A DNA stretch of 64,000 nucleotides, taken from the NCBI GenBank assembly GCA_965204725.1, contig OZ242005.1, positions 5,317,244 through 5,381,243 on the forward strand. Reading direction: 5' to 3'. Under the pieces are notes generated by a model. The model worked only from the letters and a program-made list of their open reading frames with translations. It was not told the origin of the DNA and made no database searches. A program made the position numbers and the translations under genes. Positions 33,780-58,531 of the stretch are shown one piece after another. This DNA comes from Candidatus Latescibacterota bacterium. Lineage in GTDB: Bacteria; Latescibacterota; UBA2968; UBA8231. The stretch's first letter is position 1. Each line of letters starts with the position of its first letter.

Positions 33780-33880
33780 GGATCGAGGGCATCTTGCCCT
33801 CGCCGAGGGCGGGACGCCCTCGATCCCGGACGCAGCAGGAACGTCAGAAAATGCCTACGCAACGTAAGTGTCGCGTACTT
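33780..33880. repeat. REP-like doublet and left arm of a 77-bp inverted repeat
   Basis: gatcgagggcatcttgccctcg + cgagggcgggacgccctcgatcc; 33804-33880 is an inverted copy of 35622-35698. Confidence 0.8.
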
Positions 33881-35621: not shown

Positions 35622-35702
35622 AAGTACGCGACACCTACTTTGCGTCCGCCTTTTCTGCTGTTGCCGATACGTCCGGGATCGAGGGCGGGACGCCCTCGAT
35701 CC
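35622..35702. repeat. REP-like palindrome and right arm of the inverted repeat
   Basis: aagtacgcgacac...cgtccgggatcgagggcgggacgccctcgatcc. Confidence 0.8.
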
Positions 35703-37387: not shown

Positions 37388-40300
37388 TCAGTTGAGTTTC
37401 AGTTTGTCGGACACTTCAGCGAGTAGCGCATTGATCTCTTCCACAGCCGCCGGGTCGGGCGCGGTTTCTCCCCCGAACTCAATGCGGACATTGAACTTGA
37501 GGGCATTGCCGACAGCGGCCTTGGTAATGCTTGGAATCTGATCGGCCAAGTCTTGGATGCCGTTGGCTTCGAGGACACCTTCGGCCATGAGGAGTCCCCG
37601 TGGCTTAGGTGCCGGAAGCTCCTCGCGTACTGTGGAGGGCACTTGGAGGATCACCTGTTGGGCACCAGCCAAGTCGCACGGCCACGCGGTGCTATCATTG
37701 CTCAGCTCGATCCAGCGCGCCCGGATACCATCTTCTATTGCCGACTGCACCGTGGACCACGGCAAATTGACGTCCCGCTTGGTCGAGAGCGCAGTGGCGA
37801 GGGCGAGGGCGTTGGTCTTGCTATCTTTCCAAGCATTGGGAAGCGACTTAGCCATCAACTCGTCCACGGCAATCCGCTCGGGCGGCGGCCTCAATATGGC
37901 AGCGGCACTGAGTACGCCAGCAGGGACTGGCTCCTTCAGGATTGAGGCCGGTCCGCTCGTCAACCACACTAGCCCCTGTTCAACGGCTTGTGCGATTGCG
38001 GCCTCGACCTCCGCTGGTTCGCATTTCGGGATTGTTAAAATCTCTTCGTAGCCTTCCCTAGGCACACTCACGGTGTGGCCGCCAGCGAAATAGTCGTACA
38101 CACCTTGGACGCTGATCTCCGCAGCCGACCAAAGCCCGGGGAGTTTTTGATACCCGAGCAAATCGGGCGCGAGGTCGCTCAGGGTGGCCGCTTCGGGTAG
38201 CAGCACCTCCAAGCCTGAGTCCTTGAGGGCTGGCTCCTCAATAGCCGTGCGCCAGAATGTCCTAGCGGTGTGGTCTGGGCGGGCGACCCGCGCCACCCAG
38301 ATTCCCTGCTGGACTCCTTGGACGACCGTATCCAGAATCTCCTTCTGGCGCAGCATCTTGGGCAGCTTGGGGAACTGGGCGAAGGCCCCGACCAGATCCT
38401 TGACGCGGCGGGCGTCCTCCCCTTCGCGCCACAAGTCGTAGGGGCCGCCCGGCATCATGGCCTCTGAACTGATGGCGGTTTCCTGAATGCGCGCTCGCGG
38501 ATCGGCCTTGATGGTAGTGAACAAGGGTTCGTCGGTCACCACGACTTTGAAGGCGTGGACTTCATTGCGCTCGTTGACGGTGACCACCACGGAGTACGCT
38601 TGCCTGATAGCCTCCGGGACGCGCTTTCTCGCCGACTCTGTTTCATGGGTGAGCATCTGCTCGCGGATTGGATCAATCGGCTGGTTCTTGAGTTGGTCGC
38701 GGACTTCCTCCCAACCGAGATACTCCCGCATCCGGGTGCGCGCTGCATCAAGACCGTCCCTAGAAGGAACGGCGAGGACGATGGCGTTGCGATAGACGCG
38801 GGGGCGGTCCGGCGCGGTCGTCTCGTCGATGAACCGCTTGGCTTCGGCGCTTGGCTTGCCAGACTCCGAGGCCGCTTGCGGACCGAGGATGCCGTAGTGG
38901 AACGCGCCGTCGTCCGCGATGTCGCGTGGTCTTTGCGGCAGGTTGTGGACCTTTGCGCCGGCCGCAGACGCGCCCGACGTGAGCATCTTCTGTTTCTCAA
39001 TGGCACTGATGATCTGTGATTCCACGAGGGGGGTCGGTACTCGGGTGTTGCAGGCGTCGTGGTGCATCTGCCGCAGGTTGGGACGATTGCCCAGCCGCCA
39101 TGCCTTTCCCGTGGCGACCTCCACCTCGTCGAGAAACCAAGACAACTCCGTCCAGCGCCGCAGGGCCTTCTCTAGTTCTATTTTGTCCAGATGGGCCGCT
39201 CCGATCAGCACCATCAACTCCTGAGTCAAAATTTTGTGCCCAATGGGCTGGGAACTCAGAAATACCGCAATGACCGCCTGCTCCATCTGCCGGTGGCTCA
39301 GACCGGTTGCCTCGGATTGAATGGTGTGCGCCTTGGCCAACTCGCCTTCGAGAATCGGCCGCCATGCTTGGTGCTTGCCGGTGTCTGTGTCAACGCTGGC
39401 AAAGGAAGCAAGCTCCCCGGCGGCTTCGGCCAAGCCGTTCTTTTTCGGGTCGTTCAAAAACACATTCGGCCCGACCAGCGGGCTCGTGTCCCACTTCTCG
39501 GCATCGCGCAGGGCAATGGCAAATGTCCGCAGGATGCCTCGGGTGCGCTGGAAGCCGTTGAGTTGGGTCCAGCGGGTGTAAAAAATATCCGTGAGGTCTG
39601 GGTGAAAGGGATAGCTGCTCAGATAGCGTTCTTCCGCGCTCGCCCGCTCTTTTTGGGTCTGCTCGTCGAGCGCGGCGATGCTGCCCACGACCGCAGTGAC
39701 GTGCGGGCGGAAAACGCTTGGATCGCGAATGGACTCAGGCTTGAAAAAGCGTCGCCGCAGCACCTCGGCCACGTCCTCCTTGCCCACCGGACTGGCGTCT
39801 TCTTCCGTCTGGCGGCCAAAGACTTCGGACATGTCGCGCAGCAACTCGTTGCCAAAGTCGTCGTGCTTCCTTGGATCGGAGGCGAGCAGCGAGGCCACCA
39901 TGGCGCAACGGTCCACTTTTACGACCGCTTGGGTGAGGTACTGAAAAAAGCTGATCAAGTGCCCGCGCACCTCTGGATCGGCTTCGACCTGAGCGCGGAT
40001 ATACATCAATACCTCGTCGAGCAGCACCAGCGTCGAGAGATCGTCTTGTTGCGGCTTTGATAGCAACTCTGCTACCAGCGGTTCGGCCGGCGGAGTGCCG
40101 CGCTCGGCGTCTTTGCCGTCGGCGTGGATGAGTCTGAGACCATCGGCCCCGGCCAGTTGAAAGGCGAGAATGCTCCACGGATGCTTGAGCATCCTGACCG
40201 TGCCGTCGGGACTTGGCGTCTCAACGCCTTTCTCTAGGTCAATTTTGTCAAAGCACAGTGCTGCGACCCGGGCCTTGGGGGCCTTGAAGCCGATATGTGC

Positions 40301-40660
40301 CTCGAACTCCTTTACCGCTGGCAGGTCGGGCAGCGCGGCCGGGTCGTGGACTAGGTGCCGGAGCGCGATGAGCGTATGGGTCTTGCCGCCGCCGTAGTTG
40401 ACCGCCAGCTTCCGGTACGCCTTGTCGCTTGTACCGGCCAAGCGCTGGGCCACGTCTTTGACCAGTTCTCGCAGATTGTAGGTGGGATAGGTGAGCGCGA
40501 AGAACGCGGCGGGATGTTCGTACACGGGCCGCTGGCCCTTCTGCATGACCACGTCGTATAAGTCGGCGGCGAACACGGCCAGCGACAATTCGCCGGTCTT
40601 TAGGTCGTCGCGCAGTTGCACGACCTCGTGCCAAGGTTTATAGGCAGGCTTTGTTGTCAT
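37388..40660 (-). CDS. DUF499-family P-loop ATPase
   Basis: PW..V.LR.D....FAADL, FFALTYPT, YGGGKTH, LLDE, YPFHP, GFQRTRGILR. Confidence 0.9.
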   Translation of the reverse strand: MTTKPAYKPWHEVVQLRDDLKTGELSLAVFAADLYDVVMQKGQRPVYEHPAAFFALTYPTYNLRELVKDVAQRLAGTSDKAYRKLAVNYGGGKTHTLIALRHLVHDPAALPDLPAVKEFEAHIGFKAPKARVAALCFDKIDLEKGVETPSPDGTVRMLKHPWSILAFQLAGADGLRLIHADGKDAERGTPPAEPLVAELLSKPQQDDLSTLVLLDEVLMYIRAQVEADPEVRGHLISFFQYLTQAVVKVDRCAMVASLLASDPRKHDDFGNELLRDMSEVFGRQTEEDASPVGKEDVAEVLRRRFFKPESIRDPSVFRPHVTAVVGSIAALDEQTQKERASAEERYLSSYPFHPDLTDIFYTRWTQLNGFQRTRGILRTFAIALRDAEKWDTSPLVGPNVFLNDPKKNGLAEAAGELASFASVDTDTGKHQAWRPILEGELAKAHTIQSEATGLSHRQMEQAVIAVFLSSQPIGHKILTQELMVLIGAAHLDKIELEKALRRWTELSWFLDEVEVATGKAWRLGNRPNLRQMHHDACNTRVPTPLVESQIISAIEKQKMLTSGASAAGAKVHNLPQRPRDIADDGAFHYGILGPQAASESGKPSAEAKRFIDETTAPDRPRVYRNAIVLAVPSRDGLDAARTRMREYLGWEEVRDQLKNQPIDPIREQMLTHETESARKRVPEAIRQAYSVVVTVNERNEVHAFKVVVTDEPLFTTIKADPRARIQETAISSEAMMPGGPYDLWREGEDARRVKDLVGAFAQFPKLPKMLRQKEILDTVVQGVQQGIWVARVARPDHTARTFWRTAIEEPALKDSGLEVLLPEAATLSDLAPDLLGYQKLPGLWSAAEISVQGVYDYFAGGHTVSVPREGYEEILTIPKCEPAEVEAAIAQAVEQGLVWLTSGPASILKEPVPAGVLSAAAILRPPPERIAVDELMAKSLPNAWKDSKTNALALATALSTKRDVNLPWSTVQSAIEDGIRARWIELSNDSTAWPCDLAGAQQVILQVPSTVREELPAPKPRGLLMAEGVLEANGIQDLADQIPSITKAAVGNALKFNVRIEFGGETAPDPAAVEEINALLAEVSDKLKLN

Positions 40661-40794
40661 GTCGTCCTCGTTGATTCCGTGAATGCTTAGATAGAAGGAT
40701 AGATCCGCACCGCATCTATGGGCCGGATTTCAGCAATCGCTCGATTTTGGACCAGTGCCGCTAAATTATCGATCTTACGCTTACTTCCCGTGCG

Positions 40795-41097
40795 TTAGGT
40801 CTGCACGGCCTCGCGGTTGTTGAGTGTTGGCAGTGCTCTAATACCCTCGCCTATTTCCTTTTCAGCAATCCGCAACTCATAGAGCTTCTGCAAATTCAGC
40901 CAAAACTCTGCACTGGTATTAAAAAAATGAGCCAATCTCAGGGCCGTGTCGCCAGTGATAGCACGTCGCCCGTTGAGGATTTCGGTGATTCGACTGGCGG
41001 GCACCTCAATTTGTCGTGCGAGTGATGCTGCGCTCATATCGAGCACTCTCAACTCTTCGGCGAGGTGTTCCCCCGGATGAATTGCAGGTATGGTCAT
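40795..41097 (-). CDS. higA: HigA-family HTH antitoxin (no adjacent HigB)
   Basis: IHPGEHL.EE, RITEILNGRRAITGDTALRL..FF.TSAEFWLNLQ..YEL. Confidence 0.9.
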   Translation of the reverse strand: MTIPAIHPGEHLAEELRVLDMSAASLARQIEVPASRITEILNGRRAITGDTALRLAHFFNTSAEFWLNLQKLYELRIAEKEIGEGIRALPTLNNREAVQT

Positions 41098-41105
41098 GAC
41101 TGTTT

Positions 41106-41218
41106 CTCTCTGCCTCGGCACTTGGACATCGTCACGGGCGGCTAGGTGGTTGCTAGGGCTTCGAGAACCGCCTGCTCGTCGGAACCAGCGTCGGTCAATT
41201 CGATGAGGGCTTGCAGGA
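41106..41218 (-). pseudogene. Degenerate duplicate of the 3' end of the DUF1156 gene (44446-44559)
   Basis: Encodes LQALIELTDAGSDEQAVLEAL/SNHLAARDDVQVPRQR versus LQALIELAAAGSDERATLEALSNHAAARDDVQAPRQR; 1-nt indel. Confidence 0.88.
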
Positions 41219-41272
41219 ACACTTTAGGCTCCAGATCGGGTATCCAAACGGTGAACCAGTGGCCGCGTAATG

Positions 41273-43261
41273 TCAGGATGCAGAGTTCTCAAATGACTCG
41301 ATCTCGTCTAATAGTTTCTTGATTCGGCCTTTGTCTTTGCTCTTTTCGCGGTATTTTTGGTAGCTTGCTTCTGCGTCGCGGATAAGCTGCTGGTAGGTAA
41401 TCACGCGGATATTTCTTGCTTCCATGGATCTTTCCGACATTTGCCGCCTTGCTGGATTTTCCCAATCGCTGAGTTCTCTGCCGACCAAACAAACGACCTC
41501 TATGGAACTGCTTTCATTCGGTGTTTGTAGTTGTAGTTGTTTATTCAATGCCTGTATATACTTATCGACTTGCTCCATAAGGCGGTTGCTTGAAGTGATA
41601 ACAGACCCTCTTTTTAGCTCAATGATTACGTGCTTACCTGACGTCTTCTTGTATAGAATATCTATCCGCCCCCGCTTTTCTTCATTACTCAACTTGTCGT
41701 TGTCGGAAATTTTCTTAAAAGCCGTAGTAATCGACTGTTCTAAGGTGGGTGGTGTGTCCGTAGCCATATCCCACGACGGGTCTAGTAGCCAGAGATGGTT
41801 ATAAATATGATCCTGAATAATCTTTTCTAGTGCATCTTCTGTAATGTCTTTTGACAACTTTTTAATAACATCTAAGCGGCCCTCAGTGATTTGGTAATAC
41901 CACGATGCTTCTATATCATCTAGCTCGGAAAAGAGTTTTACGGCGACTTCAAGATTGTTGATGTCAAGCTGTTCTAATTCATTTAGCTTTTCTTTGTGTC
42001 GCAAGTGTTCAAATGCTAAAACTCCATGTTTATATAGCGTCTTTCTGTGATCTTCGTCTGTCGCGATTTGGTTGATCTTGCCGAACAATTTTTCGGCGGC
42101 GGTTTTAGTATCTCCCTTCAATGACTCATACCATTCCTTGAGCGCGGGAATCTCACGGGCTTGCTTCACTCCTTCTTCATCCTTTAGTTTTGCTCGTTCT
42201 GTTGCTAAATGTTTGAGTTCCCGTTCGACAAATGTTCTCAGTTGCACAAATCGATCATCGCTTTGAATAAAATCTTGCCTACTGGACGTGGCAATATCCT
42301 CTTCCTCGGTTGAGTCGAGGAAGTCGGCTTCCAATTCGCCTATGACGTACTTTGTATATAGCCCACCTTCTCGGAATGAGTCCAAGATGTCTTCCAATGC
42401 AACCTTTCCCCTAGCGAGAATGGATACTTTATTCAGATTATCTGCGCCTTCCTGTAAGGTTCCTGATTCTTTGACCAAACCAATCCAGCCGCGCACAGCA
42501 TATTGTTCTTGCTTATCTACTGTATTTTTCTCGCGCTGAACGACATATCTCTTATCGTGCTCAAATTTGGACTTGTCGAAGTCGCCATAGACCAAGGCGT
42601 ATTCCAGCTTTCCGAAATAGTTCCTGTCTTGTAGGGTTATCTCGTCATCATTGACAAACACTTGAAAGTCTTCGGAAATAACCGAAAAGCGGCGAGCCAC
42701 GCGCTGGCGCAGATGGGTGTCCAGTGATGAGTTCACCCGTTTCTTGAGGTCGTGCAGAACGATTGCCGTGCCAGAAGGTCCCAAATTGATTGCCTTCGGC
42801 ACATCTATGACGGGAGGGTGATACTTTCGTTTGTTTTCTATTGCTTCTTGGATTTTTTCGACATCTAATTCAATCGCCAGAGGACCGGTATTCTTCTTCT
42901 TTGTAAAGACCTGTACTTTCCTTGCAATAGACAAGACAGACAGTTTGCCAATGCCCTTTCTCCCCATAACAGGCCGCCCCTTGTCTACTGTCTGGTCTCC
43001 ACCCCCTTTGATCCGGCGTTGATAACCGACGGTTAGAAATTTTTCACGCAAATCTGCGTCGTCCATTCCGCAGCCATCGTCTTTAATGACAATCTGCTTA
43101 CCGTCATTTTGTCCTTTTACGGATACATCGACCCGAGCGGCGTCGGCATCCCAAGCATTGGCAATTAGCTCAGCGAGGACGGCGGGAACGTTGCTATACA
43201 GATTTAGACCCAAATGATTGAGCACATTCAAGTCAATATCCAAAATATATTCTTTAGACAT
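41273..43261 (-). CDS. GHKL/MORC ATPase fused to PD-(D/E)XK nuclease (HgiDII/BbrUII-like restriction endonuclease)
   Basis: ELIANAWDA, DDGCGM, GRKGIGK; HLWLLDPSW, RIDI...IIELKR; AT-rich; overlaps the methylase by 8 bp. Confidence 0.85.
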   Translation of the reverse strand: MSKEYILDIDLNVLNHLGLNLYSNVPAVLAELIANAWDADAARVDVSVKGQNDGKQIVIKDDGCGMDDADLREKFLTVGYQRRIKGGGDQTVDKGRPVMGRKGIGKLSVLSIARKVQVFTKKKNTGPLAIELDVEKIQEAIENKRKYHPPVIDVPKAINLGPSGTAIVLHDLKKRVNSSLDTHLRQRVARRFSVISEDFQVFVNDDEITLQDRNYFGKLEYALVYGDFDKSKFEHDKRYVVQREKNTVDKQEQYAVRGWIGLVKESGTLQEGADNLNKVSILARGKVALEDILDSFREGGLYTKYVIGELEADFLDSTEEEDIATSSRQDFIQSDDRFVQLRTFVERELKHLATERAKLKDEEGVKQAREIPALKEWYESLKGDTKTAAEKLFGKINQIATDEDHRKTLYKHGVLAFEHLRHKEKLNELEQLDINNLEVAVKLFSELDDIEASWYYQITEGRLDVIKKLSKDITEDALEKIIQDHIYNHLWLLDPSWDMATDTPPTLEQSITTAFKKISDNDKLSNEEKRGRIDILYKKTSGKHVIIELKRGSVITSSNRLMEQVDKYIQALNKQLQLQTPNESSSIEVVCLVGRELSDWENPARRQMSERSMEARNIRVITYQQLIRDAEASYQKYREKSKDKGRIKKLLDEIESFENSAS

Positions 43262-44336
43262 TTCTTTTCTCTCTTTTTACCAAATGATCTGTAATTGCCC
43301 TGCCGATAGCGGATGCTAAAGCCGGCGGAACGGCGTTGCCGATTTGACGGCCAACTTTCGTAAAGAACGCTTTTTCGCCCGGAGCGATAAACTGGTATTG
43401 TTCGGGAAAGGTTTGTAGGATTGCACCTTCTCGCAAGCTCAAAGCCCGGTCTTGTTCTGGATGGCCATAGCGTCCCGTTCCATAACGATAGAACTGTGTA
43501 GTCAGGGTCGGTGCGGGCTTATCCCACTGCATACGTCCGTAAACACTTCCATAGCTCAAACCGCTATCTTTCTTATAGCAATCTGGCAATAATGCAGTGG
43601 GCCAATCTTGCCAACTCCTACCGGGTCTTGAGGCTTGGATTCGCTTGAGGTTGATTGGATCTAACCGAGAGCAAACATGCAGCGGATCCGCCTCACTTGA
43701 TTGTCCATGTTCAAGAGGACATAAATGTCCAATCGCTTGCTTAACTGTTTTAAGACCTGCCTCGTGAAAAAGGGGTTCTTTGGCTACGGATTTTGGCATA
43801 TCAATCGTACCCAACAAAGACGCCAACATAACCAAACGGCGGCGCTTTTGTGGAACCCCAAAGTCGTCACAAGAGATGATACCGTCGGCAATTTTATACC
43901 CTGCATCAGTCAACTCGTGCTTAAATTCATGGTAAATGGACTTACCCATGAGTTGGGGCACGTTTTCCATTGATATGATCTCTGGCCGACCTTCGAGAAT
44001 TATGCGGAGAAATTCATCAATTAGATTCCATCTCTCATCGGATTGCTTCCTTTTTGCCGTGTGACTGGAGAATGGTTGGCAGGGAGCACAGCCGACGAGT
44101 ATGCGATATTCTGCGTCATCAAAATATGTCGAAATATCGGAAAAAGAGAGTGCTCTAATATCCGCTTCGACAAAAGTTGCTCCGCAGTTCTTTTCGTAAG
44201 CATAACGACACGAGCTATCAATATCTAGACCGGCCTTGACGGTGATTCCTGCCTCCTGTAGCCCATACGTCAACCCGCCAATGCTACAGAACATATCAAA
44301 TACTTGTGCGTTTAATTGATTCAGTGATTCACGCAT
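43254..44336 (-). CDS. DNA (cytosine-5)-methyltransferase
   Basis: DMFCSIGG, GCAPCQPFS, ENV, PQKRRR, REGAILQTFP, QIGNAVPP. Confidence 0.93.
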   Translation of the reverse strand: MRESLNQLNAQVFDMFCSIGGLTYGLQEAGITVKAGLDIDSSCRYAYEKNCGATFVEADIRALSFSDISTYFDDAEYRILVGCAPCQPFSSHTAKRKQSDERWNLIDEFLRIILEGRPEIISMENVPQLMGKSIYHEFKHELTDAGYKIADGIISCDDFGVPQKRRRLVMLASLLGTIDMPKSVAKEPLFHEAGLKTVKQAIGHLCPLEHGQSSEADPLHVCSRLDPINLKRIQASRPGRSWQDWPTALLPDCYKKDSGLSYGSVYGRMQWDKPAPTLTTQFYRYGTGRYGHPEQDRALSLREGAILQTFPEQYQFIAPGEKAFFTKVGRQIGNAVPPALASAIGRAITDHLVKREKRNV

Positions 44337-44419
44337 GAAATCGCCTCACAATCGCTATTGCACCCTTAACTATGACGGCGGTAGTACTGGCTCAATCTAA
44401 GAGGGATATTGGCACCTTG

Positions 44420-47400: not shown

Positions 47401-47602
47401 CCTGCCGTTGCTTGTGATTGCCGGGATCGGCCAGCAACGTCGCAATCAGCGCCGCCCGCGACGCCGCAAGGGGCCGCCGCGCCGGCCAAATATGCAGCGT
47501 CGAGATATGCCCATGCCGCACATTCTTCTCATGGACCGAGTCGAGCGACGCCTGCTTGAGAGGGAAGGCGACTTCGATGAGACGTTTGTCATTGGGGGTC
47601 AT
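44420..47602 (-). CDS. DUF1156-domain adenine-specific DNA methyltransferase with Zn ribbon
   Basis: LHIWPARRPL, VLDPFAGGGAIPLEA, CKQC/CPCC, TDPPYYD, YSDLMDFFYVW. Confidence 0.92.
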   Translation of the reverse strand: MTPNDKRLIEVAFPLKQASLDSVHEKNVRHGHISTLHIWPARRPLAASRAALIATLLADPGNHKQRQEMLERLAGRVVETIERKRVGGRVVEKVKEETVGGILHWGRENGPDLQWFRDEIRKVYGRAPKVLDPFAGGGAIPLEAMRLGCDVTAMDINPVAWFILKCTLEYPQKLSGQTRPLPKFALEDGEFMAAFLKAKGFKGANLRTLLERLGHGDGGEVQLDFLQQDDPILEADLAWHVRAWGRWVLAKARTELAAYYPTYAEFEPLKLGEECEPRPRRLLEVDDAGVPQVDPLNAEFDDAYLADPRNPRWVAKPTVAYLWARTVTCKQCRVPLPLLKTRWLCKKDRKRVLLTMEPKADQTGVVFGVQNDVPHNGGNAAQRREHDKRVGAGTMSRTGATCPCCGAIMAMEDIRFEGRAGRLGAVMTAVVVDGPKGKGKEYRLPMDHERAVAEVTEDQLQGLYADIPFGLPEEQTPKAGTGASRAFSVDGYGFDTWRKLFTNRQLLALGEFVLTLRNLMQELDSWPESWREALVANLALVNDRLADYSSAICSWHNSGEKIGHTFGRFALPIVWDYTEVNPLSDSSGNYLGALDWVSRCVDHILESAQSAEVTNVQATSAAKTSGEYDAILTDPPYYDAIPYSDLMDFFYVWLRRSTLGLSAEIETVFSDALGPKWNHDAEDGELIDDASRFGGDKKRSKQNYEDGMARSFRACHAALQPDGRLVVVFANKHPDAWETLVAALIRAGFVVDGSWPIQTEMGTRTRAMASAALSSSVWIVCKKRPLARPGWDNTVLNEMRDNITQQLRDFWDAGIRGPDFVWAATGPALEAFSKHPVVKKANDPNQLMSVSEFLRAVRRMVVDFVVGRVLTRDGQEAATGLDDVTTYYLLHRHDFGMEEAPIGGCILYALSCNLSDTALVNQHDLLAQPGKGAASDEDDPPEDAEETGGGTKVKLKPYNRRQGRNLGLGAPGGRPAPLIDQVHKLMHLWRAGDQVKVDDYLDTRGLQRNALFNQLLQALIELAAAGSDERATLEALSNHAAARDDVQAPRQRALQFGDQR

Positions 47603-47647
47603 GGGATGCTCTCATTAGTGATGAAGCTGCCTTCGCAGATATGCCAT

Positions 47648-49315
47648 CTATCTTCGTTTTCTTTCCCTGATTCCGAGAGCCCGTCGGTAGGTAGGGTGAA
47701 CTACTACGCGAGTATCGTCGTCTATTTCAGAAGGTGAGACCCCTTGCCCTAACTCATCGACCCAAGATGCACTTTCAAAGGACTCAAGTTTTAGACCGAC
47801 CAAACCGATCCTGTAGAACACCATAAATAGCGTCCGTTTGAAGTCATTCACATCTACTAAATCATTTGCGACGTTTCTTGCATGTTCTCGTAGTGGTCCA
47901 CGCCCCTCGGGGTGATCTATTGCCGATTTTAAGCAGAGCTCAGCAATATCATTGTATCCAACTTGACTCAACGGAAATGACGGAGGACGTTTTTTAAGGA
48001 TGTCCGCGTAGTCCAATAACCCTGGATAGTCTGCGTACCATTCATCTTCAAGTGCTCTTAGCCGTTGTCGTGAATACTCTCCCTCTGCACGTTTAAGAGT
48101 ATCCACATTCAGTCGAGGCATTCCTTCAGATGCTTCAATACACTTATTGAAAAAACTGATCACGTCTCGAGGTCTTTGGGCACGGTCAGTAATAAATTTC
48201 TTAATGGGTATTTTATATATCTGCCTAGGTAATAGATCCCGATGCGTAACACTTTTGTTTTTTTGGTATCGCCGTGCTACAAGTTCATCTACTCGCTTGT
48301 CTAGCACTTCGACTATCTGATCAGGAGACCAATGTAGGGGTAAGTACAAAGATTGGTATTTCTCCTCTTGGAATCCAGTGCCACGAACCAGTTTGAAAAC
48401 TCTGTCGATCAAGTCACGCCTGACAGCAACCAAAACCTTGACATTTGGTACTTTGCTGATCTCCTTCAGAGATTCCAGCAGTGCCATGATCAGCCGATAG
48501 CGTAGTTTCTCTTCGACCCAGTTTTCATCAAGACGATCAATTAGTATGTAGTAGTTCTTCTGTCTATCTGAAAGCACGTTTCTCAACAAACCAAGTACCT
48601 TGTTTAAGTCTTGGACTTGAGCCTCGCTGACTACACTCTGGCCTCGGTTCACTACTTCAATTCTATCCTCTTCTGAGAGGCGGGATGCCTTCTTGAGTGA
48701 CCCACCTGCCTTGAGTATGGAATTTTTTAATTTAATTTCAAGTCCATCTTTCAGCTTCTCCTCTATAGTTGTAGTGATTTCCTTGACTCGATACTCAGTC
48801 TCTATCCAGAAACTTTTACCCCATTCTTGAAGATATTGTACGGCCTGTCTTGAGTTTTTATCTTTGCGAGTTTGGCCTGAGAACATATCACTAAAGAAAT
48901 TCCACCATCGTCCGTCCTCTCTATCCGTGTGTGGCTCAAAATGCTTTCTCAGTACCTCAACCGTCAAAACATGGCGCCAGAGCAACTTGTAGAAGGGCTC
49001 TAGATTTACGCCGAGATCCGTAAAATACCTGATCACAGAGGAATTTGAAACGTAAGTAAGAGCAAGATCTTGAGGATCAATCGAAATGACCCGAGCCTCT
49101 TTCTCCTCCTGCTTGAGGCGTTCAAAGAGTGCCGACTTCCCCGAACCTGTCCGACCGAGAACAATCTGCCGAATGTCTTTTTGGTTCTTGAGAACTTCGT
49201 AGTCTCCAGTATCAACAAAGCAGGTTTCAAGAAATTCGGTATCATCCTCCGCACTGGCAGCACCGATTGTGTCCGTTCTTCGGAATCTAAATTCAGATTG
49301 ACGTCCCTTGGCCAT
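47648..49315 (-). CDS. P-loop ATPase (Sll1717/FunZ-like)
   Basis: G.ASAEDD..FL..CFV, GRTGSGKS, ILIDRLDE, RPRD, VHPTYRRAL; AT-rich. Confidence 0.8.
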   Translation of the reverse strand: MAKGRQSEFRFRRTDTIGAASAEDDTEFLETCFVDTGDYEVLKNQKDIRQIVLGRTGSGKSALFERLKQEEKEARVISIDPQDLALTYVSNSSVIRYFTDLGVNLEPFYKLLWRHVLTVEVLRKHFEPHTDREDGRWWNFFSDMFSGQTRKDKNSRQAVQYLQEWGKSFWIETEYRVKEITTTIEEKLKDGLEIKLKNSILKAGGSLKKASRLSEEDRIEVVNRGQSVVSEAQVQDLNKVLGLLRNVLSDRQKNYYILIDRLDENWVEEKLRYRLIMALLESLKEISKVPNVKVLVAVRRDLIDRVFKLVRGTGFQEEKYQSLYLPLHWSPDQIVEVLDKRVDELVARRYQKNKSVTHRDLLPRQIYKIPIKKFITDRAQRPRDVISFFNKCIEASEGMPRLNVDTLKRAEGEYSRQRLRALEDEWYADYPGLLDYADILKKRPPSFPLSQVGYNDIAELCLKSAIDHPEGRGPLREHARNVANDLVDVNDFKRTLFMVFYRIGLVGLKLESFESASWVDELGQGVSPSEIDDDTRVVVHPTYRRALGIRERKRR

Positions 49316-49373
49316 TTGACATAAACCCTTGTTTTTAGATGGATTGGCTCTTGATCTGAGCGGTCAGTTCCCC

Positions 49374-49739
49374 TCAACGCCTCCAGAGTCGGCGGGCTAT
49401 CGCCACCCGTTCCTGTTCCAGCCTTTGGGCAAGACCCTCTAACTGTTGCTGAACACTGGCATCAACTTGGCCGCTGAGGAGGTGCTCGCCAAGCTGTTTC
49501 AGACCCTCCAAAGGCTCGCCGGTATTCGACCGGAGCAAGCTATCCAAAGTCAGTGCCTCAACGGACTGCGATTCAAGGCCCTGATCACTGGCGTCAATGA
49601 GAAGCTGCCCGAGCTTCCTCTGCTCGGGACCGGGCGGGCTGGTTCCTCCCTGTCCCAGCCGCTTAATCACGTTGTCTATCAGGGTCCCATAAGCCACGAC
49701 CTCAGCATAAACCCCCCTCAACAAACTCAACCCACTCAT
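49374..49739 (-). CDS. Hypothetical alpha-helical protein
   Basis: GAGG RBS, co-oriented, fills the gap between protease and ATPase genes. Confidence 0.7.
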   Translation of the reverse strand: MSGLSLLRGVYAEVVAYGTLIDNVIKRLGQGGTSPPGPEQRKLGQLLIDASDQGLESQSVEALTLDSLLRSNTGEPLEGLKQLGEHLLSGQVDASVQQQLEGLAQRLEQERVAIARRLWRR

Positions 49740-49773
49740 GTCGCCACCTCTCTGAATATAGATGTAGGTGCTT

Positions 49774-50145
49774 TCAAATGTGCCTCTTGAGCCGCACGGC
49801 CGGCAGCCTTTTCAGGCGTTGATTGCTCGGATCAACCTCAATACCCACCGACTCCAAGGCCGTAACGCCGAGCAACGGTTCGGCGTTTTCCGCTCCAAAA
49901 AGGATCGTTCCGCCGACGATCTCCCCCATAAATTCAATGTCCGCCGTGGTGATGTTCATTTTGATTTCGCGCCCGTCTGCCAGTTCATACACCCGCGCCC
50001 CCTTGGGCCTAAGCCCGATGGCCTCCAGACAGGATCGGGGGACTAGGCAATCCGTCGCACCCGTGTCAACCAGAAACAGCCCTTCCCAAGCTCGGTCCGG
50101 TTCAGCCGGATTCCGAATGGTAACAGTAACATGCGTCGCGCCCAT
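49774..50145 (-). CDS. Clan AA (retropepsin-like) aspartic protease
   Basis: LVDTGA, YELADG, PLLGVTALE..G..VDP; GAGGAG RBS. Confidence 0.9.
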   Translation of the reverse strand: MGATHVTVTIRNPAEPDRAWEGLFLVDTGATDCLVPRSCLEAIGLRPKGARVYELADGREIKMNITTADIEFMGEIVGGTILFGAENAEPLLGVTALESVGIEVDPSNQRLKRLPAVRLKRHI

Positions 50146-50190
50146 TGTAGCACTCCTCTCGGTTGCTCAACGCCCTCCACGCCCTCCACC

Positions 50191-53100
50191 TCACAATTTC
50201 CCCGATGGGCTTGACCCGCGCAACCGCTCCGCCTCACTCGACTCGGCGGCCTCTATAACAGCCTCCGAAGTGATGGTGTAAGCGATAGACTCGCGGCTCC
50301 TGACGAGCAGCTTGGCAAACGGGTCGCGCACCCGCACCAACTGCGGGTGAGGCGTGGCGCAGTTGAAGACGACGTAGAGCCAGTATTCGTCGCGGAGGTT
50401 GCAAGCCTTGGCCCATTCATTCTCGCTCATCTCGACATGGCCGGTCCCGGCCCGTCCCTTGACTTCTATGGCGCGTCGTTCTCCGCCAGCGCGGAGGGAA
50501 CGCAGATCGAAGCCCGGCCAATCGGTCAGCCCGGCGCGCCGCGCCAGCTCGGGCCGCGAAACATCCCGCACTTGGGCACCGGAGCGCTTCTCATAACCGG
50601 CAGCCACCTCCATGGCGATGGCTTCGACATCGGCATCGTAGTGCTCAGCCTCGGCGGAATCCTCGGCCGGCACCACGAGAGCGTGAACGAGGAACTCAAT
50701 CTCACCAGCCTTAATGAGGTCTGGTTCGGCTCGCAGTTGGGCGAGGCGATGGTCGCGGGAAGCCAGTACGCTCCGCTGCCGTTTCTTGACCTTGGGAAGT
50801 TCCCTCTTGGCGTACGGATCATCAGCGCGGGCCATGTCGCTAAGGCGAGATCGGGCCGCGGCGAGTTCGGCAATCTGAAAGTCGAAGCCGCGATTGACGA
50901 ACTCCAAGCGGGCGGGCAAATCCTCGAGGCAGCGCTGGCGATGGGCTTGCGCGACGCGCTCGCTCACTTCCTCGCGGATAAACCGGGCGGCGTCAACGAC
51001 CCTATCGCGTGCTAGAGTAGCCAGTGGCACCCGGCTCGGGGCAAAGCCATGGGCACCTCTGAGCAGCAGCAGATGCTCAACCGGGTACTCCTCTAAAGTA
51101 CCGTCGCTCAATTGACGCAGCCCGATCAGGCGCGATTCGAGAAGTTGCGGAGCGGTTGCGTTGCCCTGTTCGACGGAAATCAGGGCAATGTGAAACAGGT
51201 ATGCCTCATCGGCATAAGGGTCGGTGAACACGGCCCCTTGAAGCCCGTCGCGCCCGAAGCGACTGAGGATCGCGCCCGAGAGGCCATCGAACACCGGCTC
51301 GCCGGGGTGCATCCAGACCGCGCTCTCGCGGTTCGCGGGCTTGTACACCGTCAGCCGTTCTCGCGCTTCCTCGGGATAGACCTCAAGCATTGGCAACAAG
51401 GCATCGGCCGCGCGGGGCCGGTTGGGGACCAACGCAAAGGCGGCTTCCAAATCGCCCTCAATACGCAAGTCGAGTAGGGGCGCGGCTCGCTCCACAAAAC
51501 GGCGCACGTATCCGGGCAGCAACCGGCGATAGTTTTCCCGCTCTGCTTCTTGGTTGAGACGAGCCAATCGCTGGCGCACCTCGCCGCCATCTCCAAAGAG
51601 CACACGCTCCCGCTCCGCCAGTGCTTGGACCTGTTGCTCCGTAAGGCGGCCCAAGCGCTCGGCAATGGTATCGGCGTCTTCAGCCAGATAGTCCCGCATG
51701 GACAACCCCTCGAACAGCCGGCCCACCACGTCAAAGACCTTGTCGGATCGGAGTTGCCGCCGGATCGCTTCGAGCTTGTCAAGCAGGGTCTTCAGTACCC
51801 GCCCTTCGCGCGTACCGCCGGCCACCAGATTGACAATGACCACTGGATCGCGCTGCTGGCCGTAGCGATGGATGCGCCCCATCCGCTGTTCGAGCCGCGC
51901 TGGATTCCAAGGGATGTCGTAGTTCACCATCAGCCAGCAGAACTGGAGATTGATCCCCTCGCCCGCCGCGTCGGTGGCCACTAGGTAGTTGGCCCCGCCT
52001 TCGGTCGCGGGTCGGCGGAAAAACTCGACTTGGTGCTCGCGCTCCTCGTAGGGCAGGCCGCCGTGGATCAGGGCGATCTGACCGGTAAAGCCGAGGCTTT
52101 CGAGCCGGCGCACCAAAAACTCCGCTGTGTCGCGGTGCTCGGTGAAGACGATGAGCTTCTCGTCGAGGTATTGCGGATCGCGGAGCACCTCGCGCAGCTT
52201 CTCAAACTTGGACTCCTCGCCGGTGTGGAACAGGTTCCGGGCCTTGTGGAGCAACGCTTCGACCCTGCTATGTTCTATCTCCAGCTCGCTGAGATTGACT
52301 GCGACCGTGCCGCTTAGGGCCTCGTCCTCAAACTCCTCGTGTTGCTCGCCCCCGCCCTCGCTTGCAGTCTCTTCATCGGCGGTCCGCGTTTCAAATACAT
52401 CGTCGAGCTTGCCGAGGCTCCGTTGTTGGTGCGCGAGGTGTTCCTCGGTGAGTCGTCCCTGCCGAATGTCGTCAATCAGCCCGGCGAGCTTGTCTCGGCG
52501 CCGCTCAAACGAGCGCATGAGGGCGTAGGTGGAGCTGGCGAGACGCCGCTGAAAGACGCTCATTGCCAAGCGGGCCGCGGCGCGGTTCAACACGCCGGCG
52601 CGGTTGTAGTAATACTGGATGTATTCGGTCGTCGCGTCGTAGAGCTCCTGCTCGCTTTCTCGACCCTGCGAGAGATCGTAGCTCAGAGTGGCGCAGTTGC
52701 GCTGTGGATACAGCGGCGAACCATCAAGGCGGACCATTTCCTCTTTGGTCCGGCGGATAAAGTGCTTCTTCCGCGATTGGTGGGGAAAAGTATCGAACGC
52801 GTCGTAGGTTGAGAGCGCGTCCGGCAGCAACAGACGCCACAGGCAGTAGTAAGGATAATCCTTGCCCATGTTCGGCGTTGCCGTCAGCAACAGCAGATGT
52901 TGGGCCGACCAAGAGAGCCTCCAGTGCTCATCCTCTACTTCGGCGCCGGCTAGGGCTTCCGCCAGTTTGTACCGATCCGTCTTACGCACCCGAAAATCCG
53001 GCTGGCGATCCGCAGACAGCTTGTGCGCCTCGTCGAAGACGACGAGGTCGTAGGCGGCGGTTTGCGGGGCTTTGAGGCAGCCGAACATGCGGTCCCCGGC

Positions 53101-53523
53101 CAAGGTGTCGATGCTGACGATGGTCCGGTCGCTCTCCGGGCCGAGGAAGGGATTGCCAGCGCGGGCGTCTGCGCCGCTGACGACGCGGAATGGCAGGCGA
53201 AACAGGGTGCGCATCTCCCGCTCCCAGTTGCCGACCAAGCCAGCCGGCGGCACGACGAGGACGCGACGGATGAGGCGGCGGGACAGCATCTCGCGCACGT
53301 ATAGGCCCGTCATAATGGTCTTGCCGGCCCCCGCGTCGTCGGCCAGCAAGAACCGCAGGGGGGCCTGTTGCAGCATCTGCTCGTACACGGCAATGCGCTG
53401 ATGCGGAAGCGGGTCAATCAGCGACGTTTCCGCAGCGAACGCCGAATTAAAAAGATGCCCGTAGGCGAGACGATGCGCCTCGGCAACCGCCGAGACCGCC
53501 TCTGGGTGGGCCGAGAAGTCCAT
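50191..53523 (-). CDS. SNF2-family helicase with C-terminal DUF3883 nuclease-like domain
   Basis: PLPHQ, LADDAGAGKT, DEAH, TATP, EGINLQ, EQRMGRIHR; GFDLRS...IEVKG...NEW. Confidence 0.92.
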   Translation of the reverse strand: MDFSAHPEAVSAVAEAHRLAYGHLFNSAFAAETSLIDPLPHQRIAVYEQMLQQAPLRFLLADDAGAGKTIMTGLYVREMLSRRLIRRVLVVPPAGLVGNWEREMRTLFRLPFRVVSGADARAGNPFLGPESDRTIVSIDTLAGDRMFGCLKAPQTAAYDLVVFDEAHKLSADRQPDFRVRKTDRYKLAEALAGAEVEDEHWRLSWSAQHLLLLTATPNMGKDYPYYCLWRLLLPDALSTYDAFDTFPHQSRKKHFIRRTKEEMVRLDGSPLYPQRNCATLSYDLSQGRESEQELYDATTEYIQYYYNRAGVLNRAAARLAMSVFQRRLASSTYALMRSFERRRDKLAGLIDDIRQGRLTEEHLAHQQRSLGKLDDVFETRTADEETASEGGGEQHEEFEDEALSGTVAVNLSELEIEHSRVEALLHKARNLFHTGEESKFEKLREVLRDPQYLDEKLIVFTEHRDTAEFLVRRLESLGFTGQIALIHGGLPYEEREHQVEFFRRPATEGGANYLVATDAAGEGINLQFCWLMVNYDIPWNPARLEQRMGRIHRYGQQRDPVVIVNLVAGGTREGRVLKTLLDKLEAIRRQLRSDKVFDVVGRLFEGLSMRDYLAEDADTIAERLGRLTEQQVQALAERERVLFGDGGEVRQRLARLNQEAERENYRRLLPGYVRRFVERAAPLLDLRIEGDLEAAFALVPNRPRAADALLPMLEVYPEEARERLTVYKPANRESAVWMHPGEPVFDGLSGAILSRFGRDGLQGAVFTDPYADEAYLFHIALISVEQGNATAPQLLESRLIGLRQLSDGTLEEYPVEHLLLLRGAHGFAPSRVPLATLARDRVVDAARFIREEVSERVAQAHRQRCLEDLPARLEFVNRGFDFQIAELAAARSRLSDMARADDPYAKRELPKVKKRQRSVLASRDHRLAQLRAEPDLIKAGEIEFLVHALVVPAEDSAEAEHYDADVEAIAMEVAAGYEKRSGAQVRDVSRPELARRAGLTDWPGFDLRSLRAGGERRAIEVKGRAGTGHVEMSENEWAKACNLRDEYWLYVVFNCATPHPQLVRVRDPFAKLLVRSRESIAYTITSEAVIEAAESSEAERLRGSSPSGKL

Positions 53524-53794
53524 TAGTGGTCAGGTTCCATTCGACTTGGGGGAGTTGTTGGGCCAATGGCTAGCTCGCTACTCCTTCACAGCACCCGCCG
53601 TCAGCCCCTGCGTGAAAAATCGCTGGGTGAAGAGAAAGAATAGCTGTAGCGTTCTGCGATTTCCGAAATGCGGTCCGGTTTCATTGCTTCAATAATGCCG
53701 CCAAGCCGTGGGTCTTGGCAAACCCGAATACGTGCCCTCGGCTTACCGATGGATCGAAGGAGTTGGCTGAAGATCGGATTCAGAATGTATTGAT

Positions 53795-53935
53795 CCTTGC
53801 ACTGCCGGCACCGATGTTTGAGGTTACGCCTAGGTTCACGCGAACGGTCTTGTTTGCACACAAACCCTTAGCCAATATGAATAAGGAAGACCGAGTGCGC
53901 TCCTGCTACCTACACGCGTACCTACTTATGTATCT
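53795..53935 (+). pseudogene. Fragment resembling the C-terminal part of AlbA/Schlafen-HATPase (RecG-like) regulators
   Basis: LPAPMFEV..TRTVLFAHKPL..M.KEDRVRSCYLH recognised from memory; N-terminal domains absent. Confidence 0.5.
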
Positions 53936-57929: not shown

Positions 57930-58531
57930 CGCACTAGATTTCCGCCCGTGATCCTCTGTAACAAGTGGGGTTCGTCCTTGAGGATCGGCTGGAAACTGGG
58001 ATCATTCTGGACCTGAGCGGCGAGAGAATCCCCGCGCATTTCTTCTTGCCCAACGAAGGCCATGATTTCTTGCGTTGCCCAATGCACCGCTCCGCTATCT
58101 ACTAGTTCGGGTGGGCAAAAACATCCGCGTTCAATGAGGGGTCCCCATGCCGATCTCAGCAGGCTCTCTTCGTCTTGAGGGACGAAGAACAAAGGAAATT
58201 GGATGTGGCACAATTCCCACCGGAAATGCAGGTTTTCCTGTAGCAGATTTGAGTAGGCCAATTCGACGCTGCTCCATCCACGCCCCTGAGCAAGAGACTT
58301 GGCCGTGACAAAATACACAACGTGTCGGCAGCGTATAATGCTCTCTCGAAGCGCGGCAAATGCTCCTTGGCCTTTCGGGTAGTGATGGCGATCGATCCAC
58401 GGAAAGTAGGCGTTGTCTTCTAGTGCTCTGTACACGGGCAGCACTAGACAATCTCGATCCTCGGCACAATGCGAGAGAAACACGTGATGGGTACAAGGCG
58501 GCAGACGCTCGACCTTCCAATCGCCGATCAT
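57926..58531 (-). CDS. TIR-domain protein
   Basis: VFLSH..ED, PWID, I..CRHVVYFVT, GWSSVELAY (candidate catalytic Glu). Confidence 0.85.
   Translation of the reverse strand: MIGDWKVERLPPCTHHVFLSHCAEDRDCLVLPVYRALEDNAYFPWIDRHHYPKGQGAFAALRESIIRCRHVVYFVTAKSLAQGRGWSSVELAYSNLLQENLHFRWELCHIQFPLFFVPQDEESLLRSAWGPLIERGCFCPPELVDSGAVHWATQEIMAFVGQEEMRGDSLAAQVQNDPSFQPILKDEPHLLQRITGGNLVR

Follow-up and report, generated by a model that had tools for sequence, protein, structure and literature searches.

Core genes of the locus

We analyzed a 64-kb stretch of genome G000 (C1:5317244-5381243; hereafter the window), in which a run of co-oriented genes resembles a defense system of the Hma type whose core genes are separated by further genes. 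Three core genes, hmaA (50191..53523), hmaB (44420..47602), and hmaC (37388..40660), occur once each, and three open reading frames (ORFs) lie in each of the two gaps between them. This arrangement agrees with the published search rule for Hma systems, namely three genes on one strand, once each, with at most three embedded genes between neighbors (Payne et al. 2024, 10.1101/2024.01.29.577857). An earlier reading made without database searches (the sequence-only reading) had given the gene order, strand, and coordinates, all of which were reproduced, with every gene and feature of the locus described below on the minus strand. The PADLOC check that it had proposed returned Hma models for all three core proteins. 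We consider the locus to be an Hma system, also called a Type-1 DUF499-centred bacteriophage exclusion (BREX)-related system, that hosts embedded independent defense genes and is a mosaic of several events, and we put the probability of this reading at about 0.85.

The 1110-aa product of hmaA is an SNF2/DEAH helicase with a C-terminal NOV_C PD-(D/E)xK nuclease domain. It matched the PADLOC HmaA model (4.4e-160 over aa 3-1085) and the Pfam families SNF2-rel_dom, Helicase_C, and NOV_C (aa 966-1059), and it carries the motifs GAGKT65 and DEAH164 and an IEVKGR stretch. The 1060-aa product of hmaB matched PADLOC HmaB (1.7e-116) and Pfam DUF1156 (PF06634, 1.9e-16 at aa 12-66); because it contains LDPFAGGG131 (motif I) and DPPY634, we assign it to the amino-methyltransferases of the N6-adenine type. 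For hmaC, the 1090-aa product is an ORC/STAND-type AAA+ ATPase of the DUF499 family (PADLOC HmaC 4.1e-77; PF04465 4.9e-19; GGGKT90). The locus therefore shows the features of Hma membership, that is, a helicase-nuclease with an active-type PD-(D/E)xK site, a DUF1156 N6-type methyltransferase with a nested recognition insert, and a DUF499 ATPase. The NCBIfam models of the phospholipase D (PLD)-helicase type (DUF499_antiphage, DUF1156_antiphage, and phospholipD_antiphage) scored far below their cut-offs (105.3 vs 1200, 172.6 vs 1000, and 150.6 vs 1100), which places the locus in the Hma type.

Within hmaB, a hypervariable segment was located ahead of DPPY at about 45706-46086, and 46086..45706 gave no DNA-level alignment to L006, the nearest relative. 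GC content drops to 0.51 at aa 501-700, and aa 521-640 are the least conserved part of the protein, with a mean pairwise identity of 0.38-0.53 compared with 0.68 overall. This segment fits the nested target-recognition insert described for such methyltransferases (PMC12839542).

By analogy with published relatives, HmaB would mark host DNA by N6-adenine methylation, HmaC would help to load or regulate HmaB and would sense DNA, and HmaA, with its SNF2 motor and PD-(D/E)xK nuclease, would attack unmarked DNA. The sequence-only reading had described such systems as having little experimental characterization. This is now only partly true: HmaA alone has been reported to protect against T4 by means of its nuclease (Liu et al. 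2024, PMC11232893).

The genes of the locus are separated by -8 to 177 nt (151 nt by ORF call), and a promoter and terminator scan of the locus placed no terminator-like site between the minus-strand genes; one promoter-like site was found just upstream of the C5 methyltransferase gene described below (44423-44394). From this packing we infer that core and cargo genes could be co-transcribed.

Base composition differs among the genes. The core genes are host-like in GC (hmaA 0.632, hmaB 0.611, hmaC 0.611), in contrast to three AT-rich cargo genes, those for an Sll1717-family ATPase (0.446), a C5 methyltransferase (0.467), and a restriction enzyme (0.444). The contrast between backbone and cargo drawn by the sequence-only reading thus stood for these three, although the protease (0.583), p121 (0.582), and higA (0.523) genes are intermediate.

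Two short pieces of unrelated genes lie upstream of hmaA and were identified by blastn against L006, L004, and G001. The first (53577-53644, minus strand) is the 68-nt tail of an ABC permease gene; G001 and L006 retain this gene in full upstream of hmaA, and BPD_transp_1 was identified in the L006 neighbor. The second is a 152-nt fragment (53647-53798, minus strand) with 93% identity to L004:16728-16879; its source is a partner gene of about 190 aa that normally follows the PDC-M07A ATPase gene just before hmaC.

Genes between hmaA and hmaB

The gene next to hmaA (49774..50145) encodes a 123-aa retropepsin-like aspartic protease of clan AA (TIGR03698 88.9 bits vs cut-off 57.35; DTG27). In this Hma clade, a small protease gene of this family is usually found right after hmaA, as in L014, L030, G029, and G030; in L003, G007, and G001 (where there are four copies or fragments), it occupies another position of the hmaA-hmaB gap. 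In L006, a 38-nt piece of the protease 3' end was left after hmaA, and metagenome contigs from three studies (X3, X4, X12) join 49811 to 50191, so that the protease gene is gone, as in L006. The family occurs in multiple copies, in 20 of 31 genomes overall and in 14 of the 18 genomes of the same genus (2-6 copies each). Among 12 copies examined outside Hma loci, four lie between hsdM and hsdS of type I restriction-modification (RM) operons and the rest in housekeeping contexts. The four belong to loci L065, L069, L070, and L071 of the same-genus genomes G009, G013, G010, and G011; the protease is thus embedded in a second kind of methylation-based defense system.

Following the protease gene, 49374..49739 encodes a conserved 121-aa helical protein (p121), which matched nothing in Pfam, NCBIfam, or PADLOC. 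It has 151 homologues, 118-157 aa long and mostly 121-123 aa; none was found in the 32 related Hma loci described below. In L052 (G023) and L055 (G029), a p121 homologue overlaps the stop codon of a class II prokaryotic Argonaute (pAgo) gene (PADLOC pAgo_II 2e-192) and precedes an unannotated gene of 388-411 aa. This arrangement may represent an undescribed pAgo-associated pair. A pairing of p121 with the Sll1717 gene was considered and rejected: their homologue lists share one long contig only, and elsewhere p121 follows pAgo.

The third gene (47648..49315) encodes a 555-aa P-loop NTPase of the Sll1717 family (NF047389 195.4 bits vs cut-off 75, aa 17-547) with the Walker A motif GRTGSGKS54. 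The family is widespread, with 1555 matches among the 8000 candidates scored and a conserved length of about 550 aa. Its structure model (mean predicted local distance difference test, pLDDT, 82.4) gave weak Foldseek matches (TM 0.2-0.34) to PAB2304, Cdc6/ORC, BrxC, NLR, and RdrA, which suggests a STAND/ORC-like fold, and no effector domain was recognized in the protein. An identification with the DS41_1 anti-phage protein (NF053860) was rejected at 59.9 bits against a cut-off of 370, and a literature search on the name Sll1717 found nothing. Apart from a 34% partial match in L003, the NTPase was not found in the 32 related loci, and it looks like the youngest cargo of the locus.

Genes between hmaB and hmaC

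In the second gap, 43254..44336 encodes a 360-aa C5 cytosine DNA methyltransferase (PF00145 5e-53; PADLOC MTase_II 2.4e-87) with the catalytic motifs PCQ85 and ENV124. The adjacent gene, which overlaps it by 8 nt (41273..43261), encodes a 662-aa restriction enzyme of the BbrUII/HgiDII family, which combines a GHKL ATPase with a PD-(D/E)xK nuclease (Pfam HATPase_c_3 and PDDEXK_4) and scored 754.5 bits with NF050001 (cut-off 550). The enzyme thus exceeds the equivalog cut-off and stands next to a C5 methyltransferase with its catalytic motifs in place, as expected of a Type II RM system of the BbrUII/HgiDII kind. At the level of motifs, the proposal of two methylation chemistries in one locus was supported, with LDPFAGGG and DPPY of HmaB predicting m6A and PCQ and ENV of the second enzyme predicting m5C.

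We take the specificity of the BbrUII/HgiDII family to be GTCGAC. In the genome, this palindrome is 12-fold rarer than expected (observed/expected 0.084) and ranks 7th among 64 palindromes; eleven others are also below 0.14, so the depletion is not specific. In G000, twelve 6-bp palindromes have an observed/expected ratio below 0.14 relative to a Markov expectation, among them GTGCAC at 0.011 (10 seen, 893 expected), GTATAC at 0.05, and TTCGAA at 0.054. Such depletion suggests long exposure to many Type II restriction systems.

The RM pair is bordered by a direct repeat of the hmaB 3' end. The upstream copy is the functional end of hmaB (44436..44553). The downstream copy (41106..41222) is a relic of an ancestral hmaB 3' end, covering aa ~1013-1053, that runs straight into higA. 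When HmaB was searched against the window with tblastn (8e-8), aa 1015-1052 were found again, frameshifted, at 41219-41107 between the restriction enzyme gene and higA; at the DNA level, the repeat (D5) pairs 44495-44559 with 41154-41218 at 82% identity over 65 nt. In G030 (L066), higA directly follows hmaB, and this single-copy junction aligns colinearly through the window relic into higA, with a 22-nt deletion in the window over the old stop codon. The insert thus consists of the R and M genes, is about 3.2 kb long, contains no mobility gene, and is accompanied by a duplication of about 115-130 nt. It has the published hallmarks of "insertion with long target duplication": R and M genes inside, less than 20 kb, a duplication of more than 30 bp, no other mobile element, and a single copy elsewhere (G030). 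Judged from these alignments, the RM pair fits an insertion of this kind into the hmaB/higA junction.

The relic has an ortholog in L006 at 15468-15547. Compared with the window, L006 has a restriction enzyme gene of 88% nucleotide identity, the shared relic, and higA at 92%, keeps the PDC-M07A gene, and has neither Sll1717 nor p121. Because L006 has both the orthologous relic and the restriction enzyme, the RM insertion predates the split from L006. In L006 (13240-15305), the C5 methyltransferase of the shared pair is cut cleanly to its first 20 codons, and the 658-aa restriction enzyme ORF is open; that enzyme may be an orphan, may be protected by another C5 methyltransferase in the hmaA-hmaB gap (38% identical), or may be inactive.

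The last gene of this gap (40795..41121) encodes a HigA-family helix-turn-helix (HTH) protein of 100-108 aa (TIGR02607 92.8 bits vs cut-off 47.7, 9e-27), whose true start is likely, from the sequence, the ATG at 41095 (MTIPAIHPGE...). No HigB partner was found: there is no ORF of at least 80 aa between the restriction enzyme gene and higA, and those 151-177 nt hold the hmaB relic. In L006, L012, L014, L019, and G030, HigA is followed by a PDC-M07A ABC ATPase, and the 1246 nt that contain the PDC-M07A gene in L006 correspond to only 82 nt in the window. The window HigA is the remnant of a HigA plus PDC-M07A module. Since HigA precedes PDC-M07A in relatives, it is more likely a regulator or partner of that module.

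Gap content in related loci

A search with HmaB identified 32 related loci at 56-87% identity, from metagenome-assembled genomes (MAGs) labeled Latescibacterota, Gemmatimonadota, Binatia, Dehalococcoidia, Spirochaetia, and others. The order hmaA-hmaB-hmaC was kept throughout, and gap content ranged from nothing to about 9 kb. Counting complete gaps only and dropping L018 as decayed, the 23 hmaA-hmaB gaps measured 82-8933 bp (at least 1 kb in 21, below 150 bp in one) and the 27 hmaB-hmaC gaps 32-5198 bp (at least 1 kb in 17, below 150 bp in six). L022 carries no cargo in either gap. The downstream neighbors of the window recur in L004 (orf400 87%, a PALP gene 89%), whose cargo is different. None of the 32 loci showed the combination of cargo present in the window, with protease, p121, and Sll1717 in one gap and a BbrUII-type RM pair plus a solitary HigA in the other. 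The sequence-only reading had proposed a landing pad for exchangeable cassettes and had named identical gene content across relatives as what would refute it; the gaps of the 32 loci differ widely, in line with the proposal.

We scanned 146 of 157 gap ORFs of at least 90 aa; the other 11 lie upstream of L001, where no hmaA is within reach. Matches included HEC-01A/B, PDC-M07A, short pAgo with TIR-APAZ, pAgo, cyclic-oligonucleotide-based anti-phage signaling system (CBASS), Gabija, HEC-09, Old/GajA-like, NsnA/PD-T4-2, PDC-S02, PDC-M28, PDC-S01, and PDC-S15 proteins, and another GHKL restriction enzyme with a C5 methyltransferase. Many gap ORFs had no match. Among gap ORFs of at least 90 aa, 111 of 122 are co-oriented with the backbone.

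Metagenome contigs start in or leave the stretch at 50191 (the hmaA stop), at 47552-47555 (about 50 nt inside hmaB), and at 44417 (the hmaB stop), and one X3 contig bridges the C5 methyltransferase gene and hmaB. These contigs establish that variants exist and do not give their frequency. A lower contig depth of the Sll1717 region relative to the backbone (X3, X4, X12) was set aside, as contig depth cannot rank parts of a locus.

Relics of core gene ends and the layering of the gaps

To survey duplicated gene ends, we compared the core proteins of each locus, in 60-aa tiles, with the same locus (68 full-length genes, 34 loci), excluding matches that overlapped the full core genes themselves. 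Relics of the hmaB 5' end were detected at seven sites in 5 of 23 loci, of the hmaB 3' end in 2 of 23 loci, of the hmaC 5' end at two sites in 1 of 26 loci, and of the hmaA 3' end in 1 of 19 loci. None of the 45 tiles at the outer ends (hmaA 5', hmaC 3') matched, nor did any of the 817 internal tiles of hmaB and hmaC. Internal hmaA tiles gave one true fragment (L019), a tile beside the terminal relic of L006, and two distant paralogues (L012, L014). Further relics were noted outside the tile scan in L008, G030, and G001 (62 nt before a protease copy). All of these counts come from related loci rather than independent events, and the relics of the window and L006 represent one event.

In DNA alignments, the hmaB 5' relics begin between +1 and +49, counted from the start codon, and extend to between +55 and +181; the repeats are 52-167 nt long and 77-97% identical to the working copy. 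About 4-80 nt separate the end of a relic from the first ORF called in the cassette, and the last ORF of the cassette lies directly against the hmaB start. In L020, three hmaB 5' relics stand in a row, each before a cassette (SIR2-like, HEC-09, and Gabija), and in L013 two hmaC 5' relics each precede a HEC-01A gene. HmaB aa 1-40, with a mean pairwise identity of 0.83 against 0.68 overall, are among the most conserved segments of the protein. Most cassettes have no relic, the relics do not group by cassette type, and junction sequence is common only to L003/L010 and L020/L025.

L006 also carries, downstream of hmaC (22668-23153), a remnant of a second Hma copy, in which the 68-nt hmaA leader runs into the final ~220 nt of hmaA and a protease gene. 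This remnant is 94% identical to the window, compared with 91% for the first copy of L006 itself.

Taken together, the two gaps do not each hold one three-gene cassette, as the sequence-only reading had proposed; each gap consists of several layers of different age. An older layer, common to relatives, would comprise the hmaA-protease, hmaB-higA(-PDC-M07A), and hmaC-AAA_22 associations, the last of these being the ATPase genes downstream of hmaC that are described below. Loss of the PDC-M07A ATPase would have left higA alone. The AT-rich RM pair would have entered the hmaB/higA junction with a duplicated hmaB 3' end (about 115-130 nt), keeping hmaB intact, before the split from L006. The AT-rich Sll1717 gene would have been gained later, perhaps with p121, beside the hmaB start, and the AAA+ gene downstream of hmaC would have been duplicated in tandem.

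Origin of the embedded genes

The reading of the locus as an Hma system with independent embedded defense genes, assembled in several events, has to be weighed against a number of points. No relic was found near the Sll1717 and p121 cargo (tblastn, E < 1). The repeat copies around the RM pair are only 82% identical, which means either that the event is old or that the incoming DNA brought a foreign hmaB end. T4 escape was reported to be unaffected by HmaB overexpression (Liu et al. 2024, PMC11232893), a result that counts against a simple RM-like model of Hma. The promoter and terminator scans returned fewer sites than shuffled sequence (4 vs 7.8 promoter-like, 9 vs 20 terminator-like) and say little for this phylum. 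For the AAA_22 proteins, the nuclease assignment is putative and derives from a motif and a predicted topology.

A stronger version of how the genes were acquired in this reading is that all cargo was captured in an integron-like manner, with no integrase involved. Handles would be provided by the conserved core-gene ends, most of all by the 5' end of hmaB; a cassette carrying a copy of a gene end would enter by single crossover or homology-anchored recombination, leave a relic, keep the gene, and stack with others. The relics cluster at gap-facing ends, with no match among the 45 outer and 817 internal hmaB and hmaC tiles. Relic and cassette units are stacked in L020 and L013, the relic standing just before the cassette and the last ORF abutting the hmaB start, the proposed handle is conserved (0.83 over HmaB aa 1-40), and metagenome contigs break about 50 nt inside hmaB. 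Other findings do not favor it: most cassettes, the Sll1717 cargo of the window included, have no detectable relic, the loci are related (a single event accounts for the relics of the window and of L006, and the same junction occurs in L003 and L010), the hmaA 3' and hmaB 3' ends are not especially conserved (0.48 and 0.59), and the relics do not sort with cassette type. No circular or excised form was seen among the contigs, and the internal hmaA fragment in L019 means that some relics are plain decay. On this evidence, we judge that the odds of such capture for all cargo fall somewhat short of even.

Alternatively, the operon could act as a neutral genomic sink, in which insertions are tolerated in a dispensable, co-oriented defense operon and the relics are debris of decaying or recombining second Hma copies. 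The sink idea is the one mechanistic suggestion met in the literature consulted (Payne et al. 2024, 10.1101/2024.01.29.577857). It is consistent with the second-Hma remnant in L006, the decayed Hma genes in G007, G013, G003, and L018, and the unrelated-gene scars upstream of hmaA in the window. The chromosome stretch is also variable within the genus: beside orf400, Hma is intact in G000, G001, and G014, decayed in G007, G013, and G003, and not found there in G002, G010, G011, and G012. However, random decay should give internal fragments equally, whereas hmaB and hmaC gave 11 terminal relic sites against none of 817 internal tiles. The relics also lie exactly at cassette borders in the same orientation, the backbone genes beside them are intact, and the window relic is colinear with the single-copy junction of another genome. 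A neutral sink appears unlikely, although it deserves to be kept in view.

Site-specific integration would involve a recombinase encoded elsewhere that acts on attachment (att) sites in the ends of hmaB, hmaA, and hmaC, the element bringing the replaced gene end. Islands that carry an integrase typically duplicate a gene end and leave the target gene whole, Liu et al. (2024, PMC11232893) reported that in 19.1% of cases phage integrase genes lie no more than ten genes away from hmaA, and site-specific recombination is among the classes of repeat-flanked RM insertion listed by Furuta et al. (2010, PMC2853133). The sequence-only reading had seen no integrase, and this held: no integrase or transposase was found in the 64-kb window at the Pfam level among the 16 + 28 ORFs scanned, which outside the locus were those of at least 110 aa. 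An Rfam search over 33000-54500 with E up to 0.1 returned 0 matches, and hence no known RNA or attC-like family at the junctions. The hmaB 5' relics end anywhere from +55 to +181 nt, and a fixed core would give one end point; this variation argues against a single att core. The repeats are, moreover, long (52-167 nt) and diverged (77-97%). We consider site-specific integration improbable.

Least probable is that the nine genes form one machine of an Hma variant with accessory subunits: the genes are co-oriented and tightly packed, and the protease right after hmaA and HigA right after hmaB in several relatives could have regulatory or accessory roles, but in L022 and other loci the three core genes stand without anything in the gaps, the GC content of the RM pair and of the Sll1717 NTPase is foreign, the Sll1717 family is widespread with a conserved length of about 550 aa, the protease also occurs in type I RM operons and housekeeping contexts, and a restriction enzyme with its methyltransferase is a self-sufficient known system.

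We therefore retain the reading of an Hma system with embedded independent defense genes acquired in several events. The recurrent terminal relics suggest a general, testable route for embedding. More broadly, Hma-type systems might grow without a recombinase in an integron-like way, with the gap-facing core ends, above all the first ~60 hmaB codons, acting as homology handles, and with a long duplication, a relic left behind, and stacking; we offer this generalization tentatively and regard it as doubtful on balance. If true, the general mechanism of defense-system embedding would be the "insertion with long target duplication" that has been described for RM units, and the near-constant co-orientation of embedded genes and the intact state of the core genes would be explained.

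Genes downstream of hmaC and the wider neighborhood

Downstream of hmaC lie two tandem AAA_22/AAA_35 ATPase genes (35764-37365 and 33897-35501; Pfam AAA_22) encoding paralogues of 533 and 534 aa that are 92% identical. The pair forms an 1867-nt tandem repeat with host-like GC (0.64-0.65). A short segment of the ATPase domain, aa 97-123, accounts for 27 of the 43 differences between the paralogues, and this localized variable patch may set different specificities. Both were called AAA-nucleases in the sequence-only reading. Walker A and Walker B motifs, a C-terminal D447...E466-C-K468, and an alpha-beta-beta-beta-alpha-beta topology in a confident structure model (pLDDT 93.9) are in keeping with a putative nuclease domain, but no Pfam nuclease family matched, Foldseek matched the ATPase part only, and a sequence search against solved structures was uninformative (best E 0.77). 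No PADLOC model matches the family.

A single AAA_22 copy follows hmaC in G001, and an N-terminal fragment does so in L006. In L004, hmaC is followed directly by orf400, with no AAA_22 there. Homologues also occur inside the hmaA-hmaB gap of L004, L007, L010, and G001; in G002 and G012, they are neighbors of orf400 and no Hma is found there. The AAA_22 pair is thus a third variable slot, 3' of hmaC. After each AAA_22 gene stands a GC-rich palindromic element with 23-nt arms that are 87% complementary (33780-33826, 35622-35698). It may be a terminator or a repetitive extragenic palindromic (REP)-like element copied with the tandem duplication. The aat gene was tried as a conserved upstream neighbor and rejected, being 200-250 kb away in G001, G002, and G010, so that no clean empty site can be defined for the whole Hma locus.

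Elsewhere in the window, 57926-59152 encodes a TIR_2-domain protein (201 aa) and a 206-aa partner in a patch of lower GC (0.54), and positions 4-420 hold a HEPN_RiboL-PSP fragment; both are possible further defense genes. G000 has three more DUF499-like matches with 30-34% identity to HmaC (C1:1919209-1921551, 5068592-5069779, and 869283-870380), and 13.6 kb from one of these, at 5054939, is a second copy of the protease gene. The genome probably carries further BREX-related systems.

Significance and comparison with known systems

The landing-pad phenomenon itself is already published, as "embedded" genes by Payne et al. (2024) and as an "insertion hotspot" by Liu et al. (2024). The locus provides a clear natural example of a defense system hosting others in an uncultured lineage of sponge and marine metagenomes, to which our analysis adds a history in layers, an RM pair that fits an insertion with long target duplication, and the recurrent terminal relics. 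In the literature searched, which was made up mostly of listings and on which the supplements of the Payne preprint might bear, we found no description of terminal relics at embedded cassettes. If the relic pattern holds in a large survey, it would offer a testable mechanism for embedding. The embedded position also flags candidate defense genes, namely the Sll1717-family NTPase, the AAA_22 ATPase with its putative PD-(D/E)xK domain, and the small retropepsin-like protease.

The closest known system is Hma, which was named by Payne et al. (2021). Embedded genes were reported in 931 of 1485 Hma systems (62.7%), 96.7% of them in the same orientation, and were used to find new defenses (Payne et al. 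2024, 10.1101/2024.01.29.577857). The hma region was called a defense-gene insertion hotspot (Liu et al. 2024, PMC11232893), and a 2026 survey renames the family Type-1 DUF499-centred BREX-related systems (PMC12839542). The window has the same gene order, strand, and three core families, a methyltransferase with a large insert between motifs I and IV, and co-oriented genes in both gaps. Its three genes per gap are the upper limit of the published search rule, and its host belongs to an uncultured lineage whose relatives are labeled Latescibacterota MAGs.

MANTIS, or Gao_RL (Type-2 DUF499-centred BREX-related), likewise combines a DUF499 AAA+ ATPase, an N6-adenine methyltransferase, and a helicase-nuclease effector, and is the only relative with a worked-out mechanism. 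There, the DUF499 ATPase and a co-factor are reported to load the methyltransferase, asymmetric sites are hemimethylated, and the helicase-nuclease restricts (10.64898/2026.09.23.753747). MANTIS has a fourth gene, MtsB, and a PLD-type nuclease, whereas the nuclease in the window is of the PD-(D/E)xK type and no MtsB-like gene was found there.

In the RM insertions with long target duplication of Furuta et al. (2010, PMC2853133) and of the earlier H. pylori work cited there, as in the window, R and M genes (here ~3.2 kb) with foreign GC and no mobility gene stand between direct repeats (here about 115 nt) of a target that is single-copy elsewhere. The window differs in that the duplicated sequence belongs to the 3' end of a core gene from a second defense system, which stays intact, and in that the repeats are old (82%). 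In related loci, border relics also flank non-RM cassettes (Old-like, HEC-01, HEC-09, Gabija, and SIR2-like).

HigBA toxin-antitoxin pairs resemble the locus in one protein: the HTH protein of the window passes the HigA cut-off, but in place of a HigB gene the hmaB relic and the restriction enzyme gene lie upstream. PrrC in EcoprrI and BrxU in BREX, both discussed by Payne et al. (2024), are likewise mechanistically different systems inside a methylation-based one, and an embedded system may back up protection when the outer system is inhibited (Payne et al. 2024, 10.1101/2024.01.29.577857). The cargo of the window differs in that it includes a complete classical Type II RM system, and any functional link to Hma is putative. 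Integron arrays are alike in outline, with promoter-less, co-oriented cassettes piling up beside a resident gene and stacked with a repeated border, as in L020 and L013. Here, in contrast, neither an integrase nor an attC-like site (0 Rfam matches) was found in the stretches searched, the end points vary, and the border is a piece of the host gene itself.

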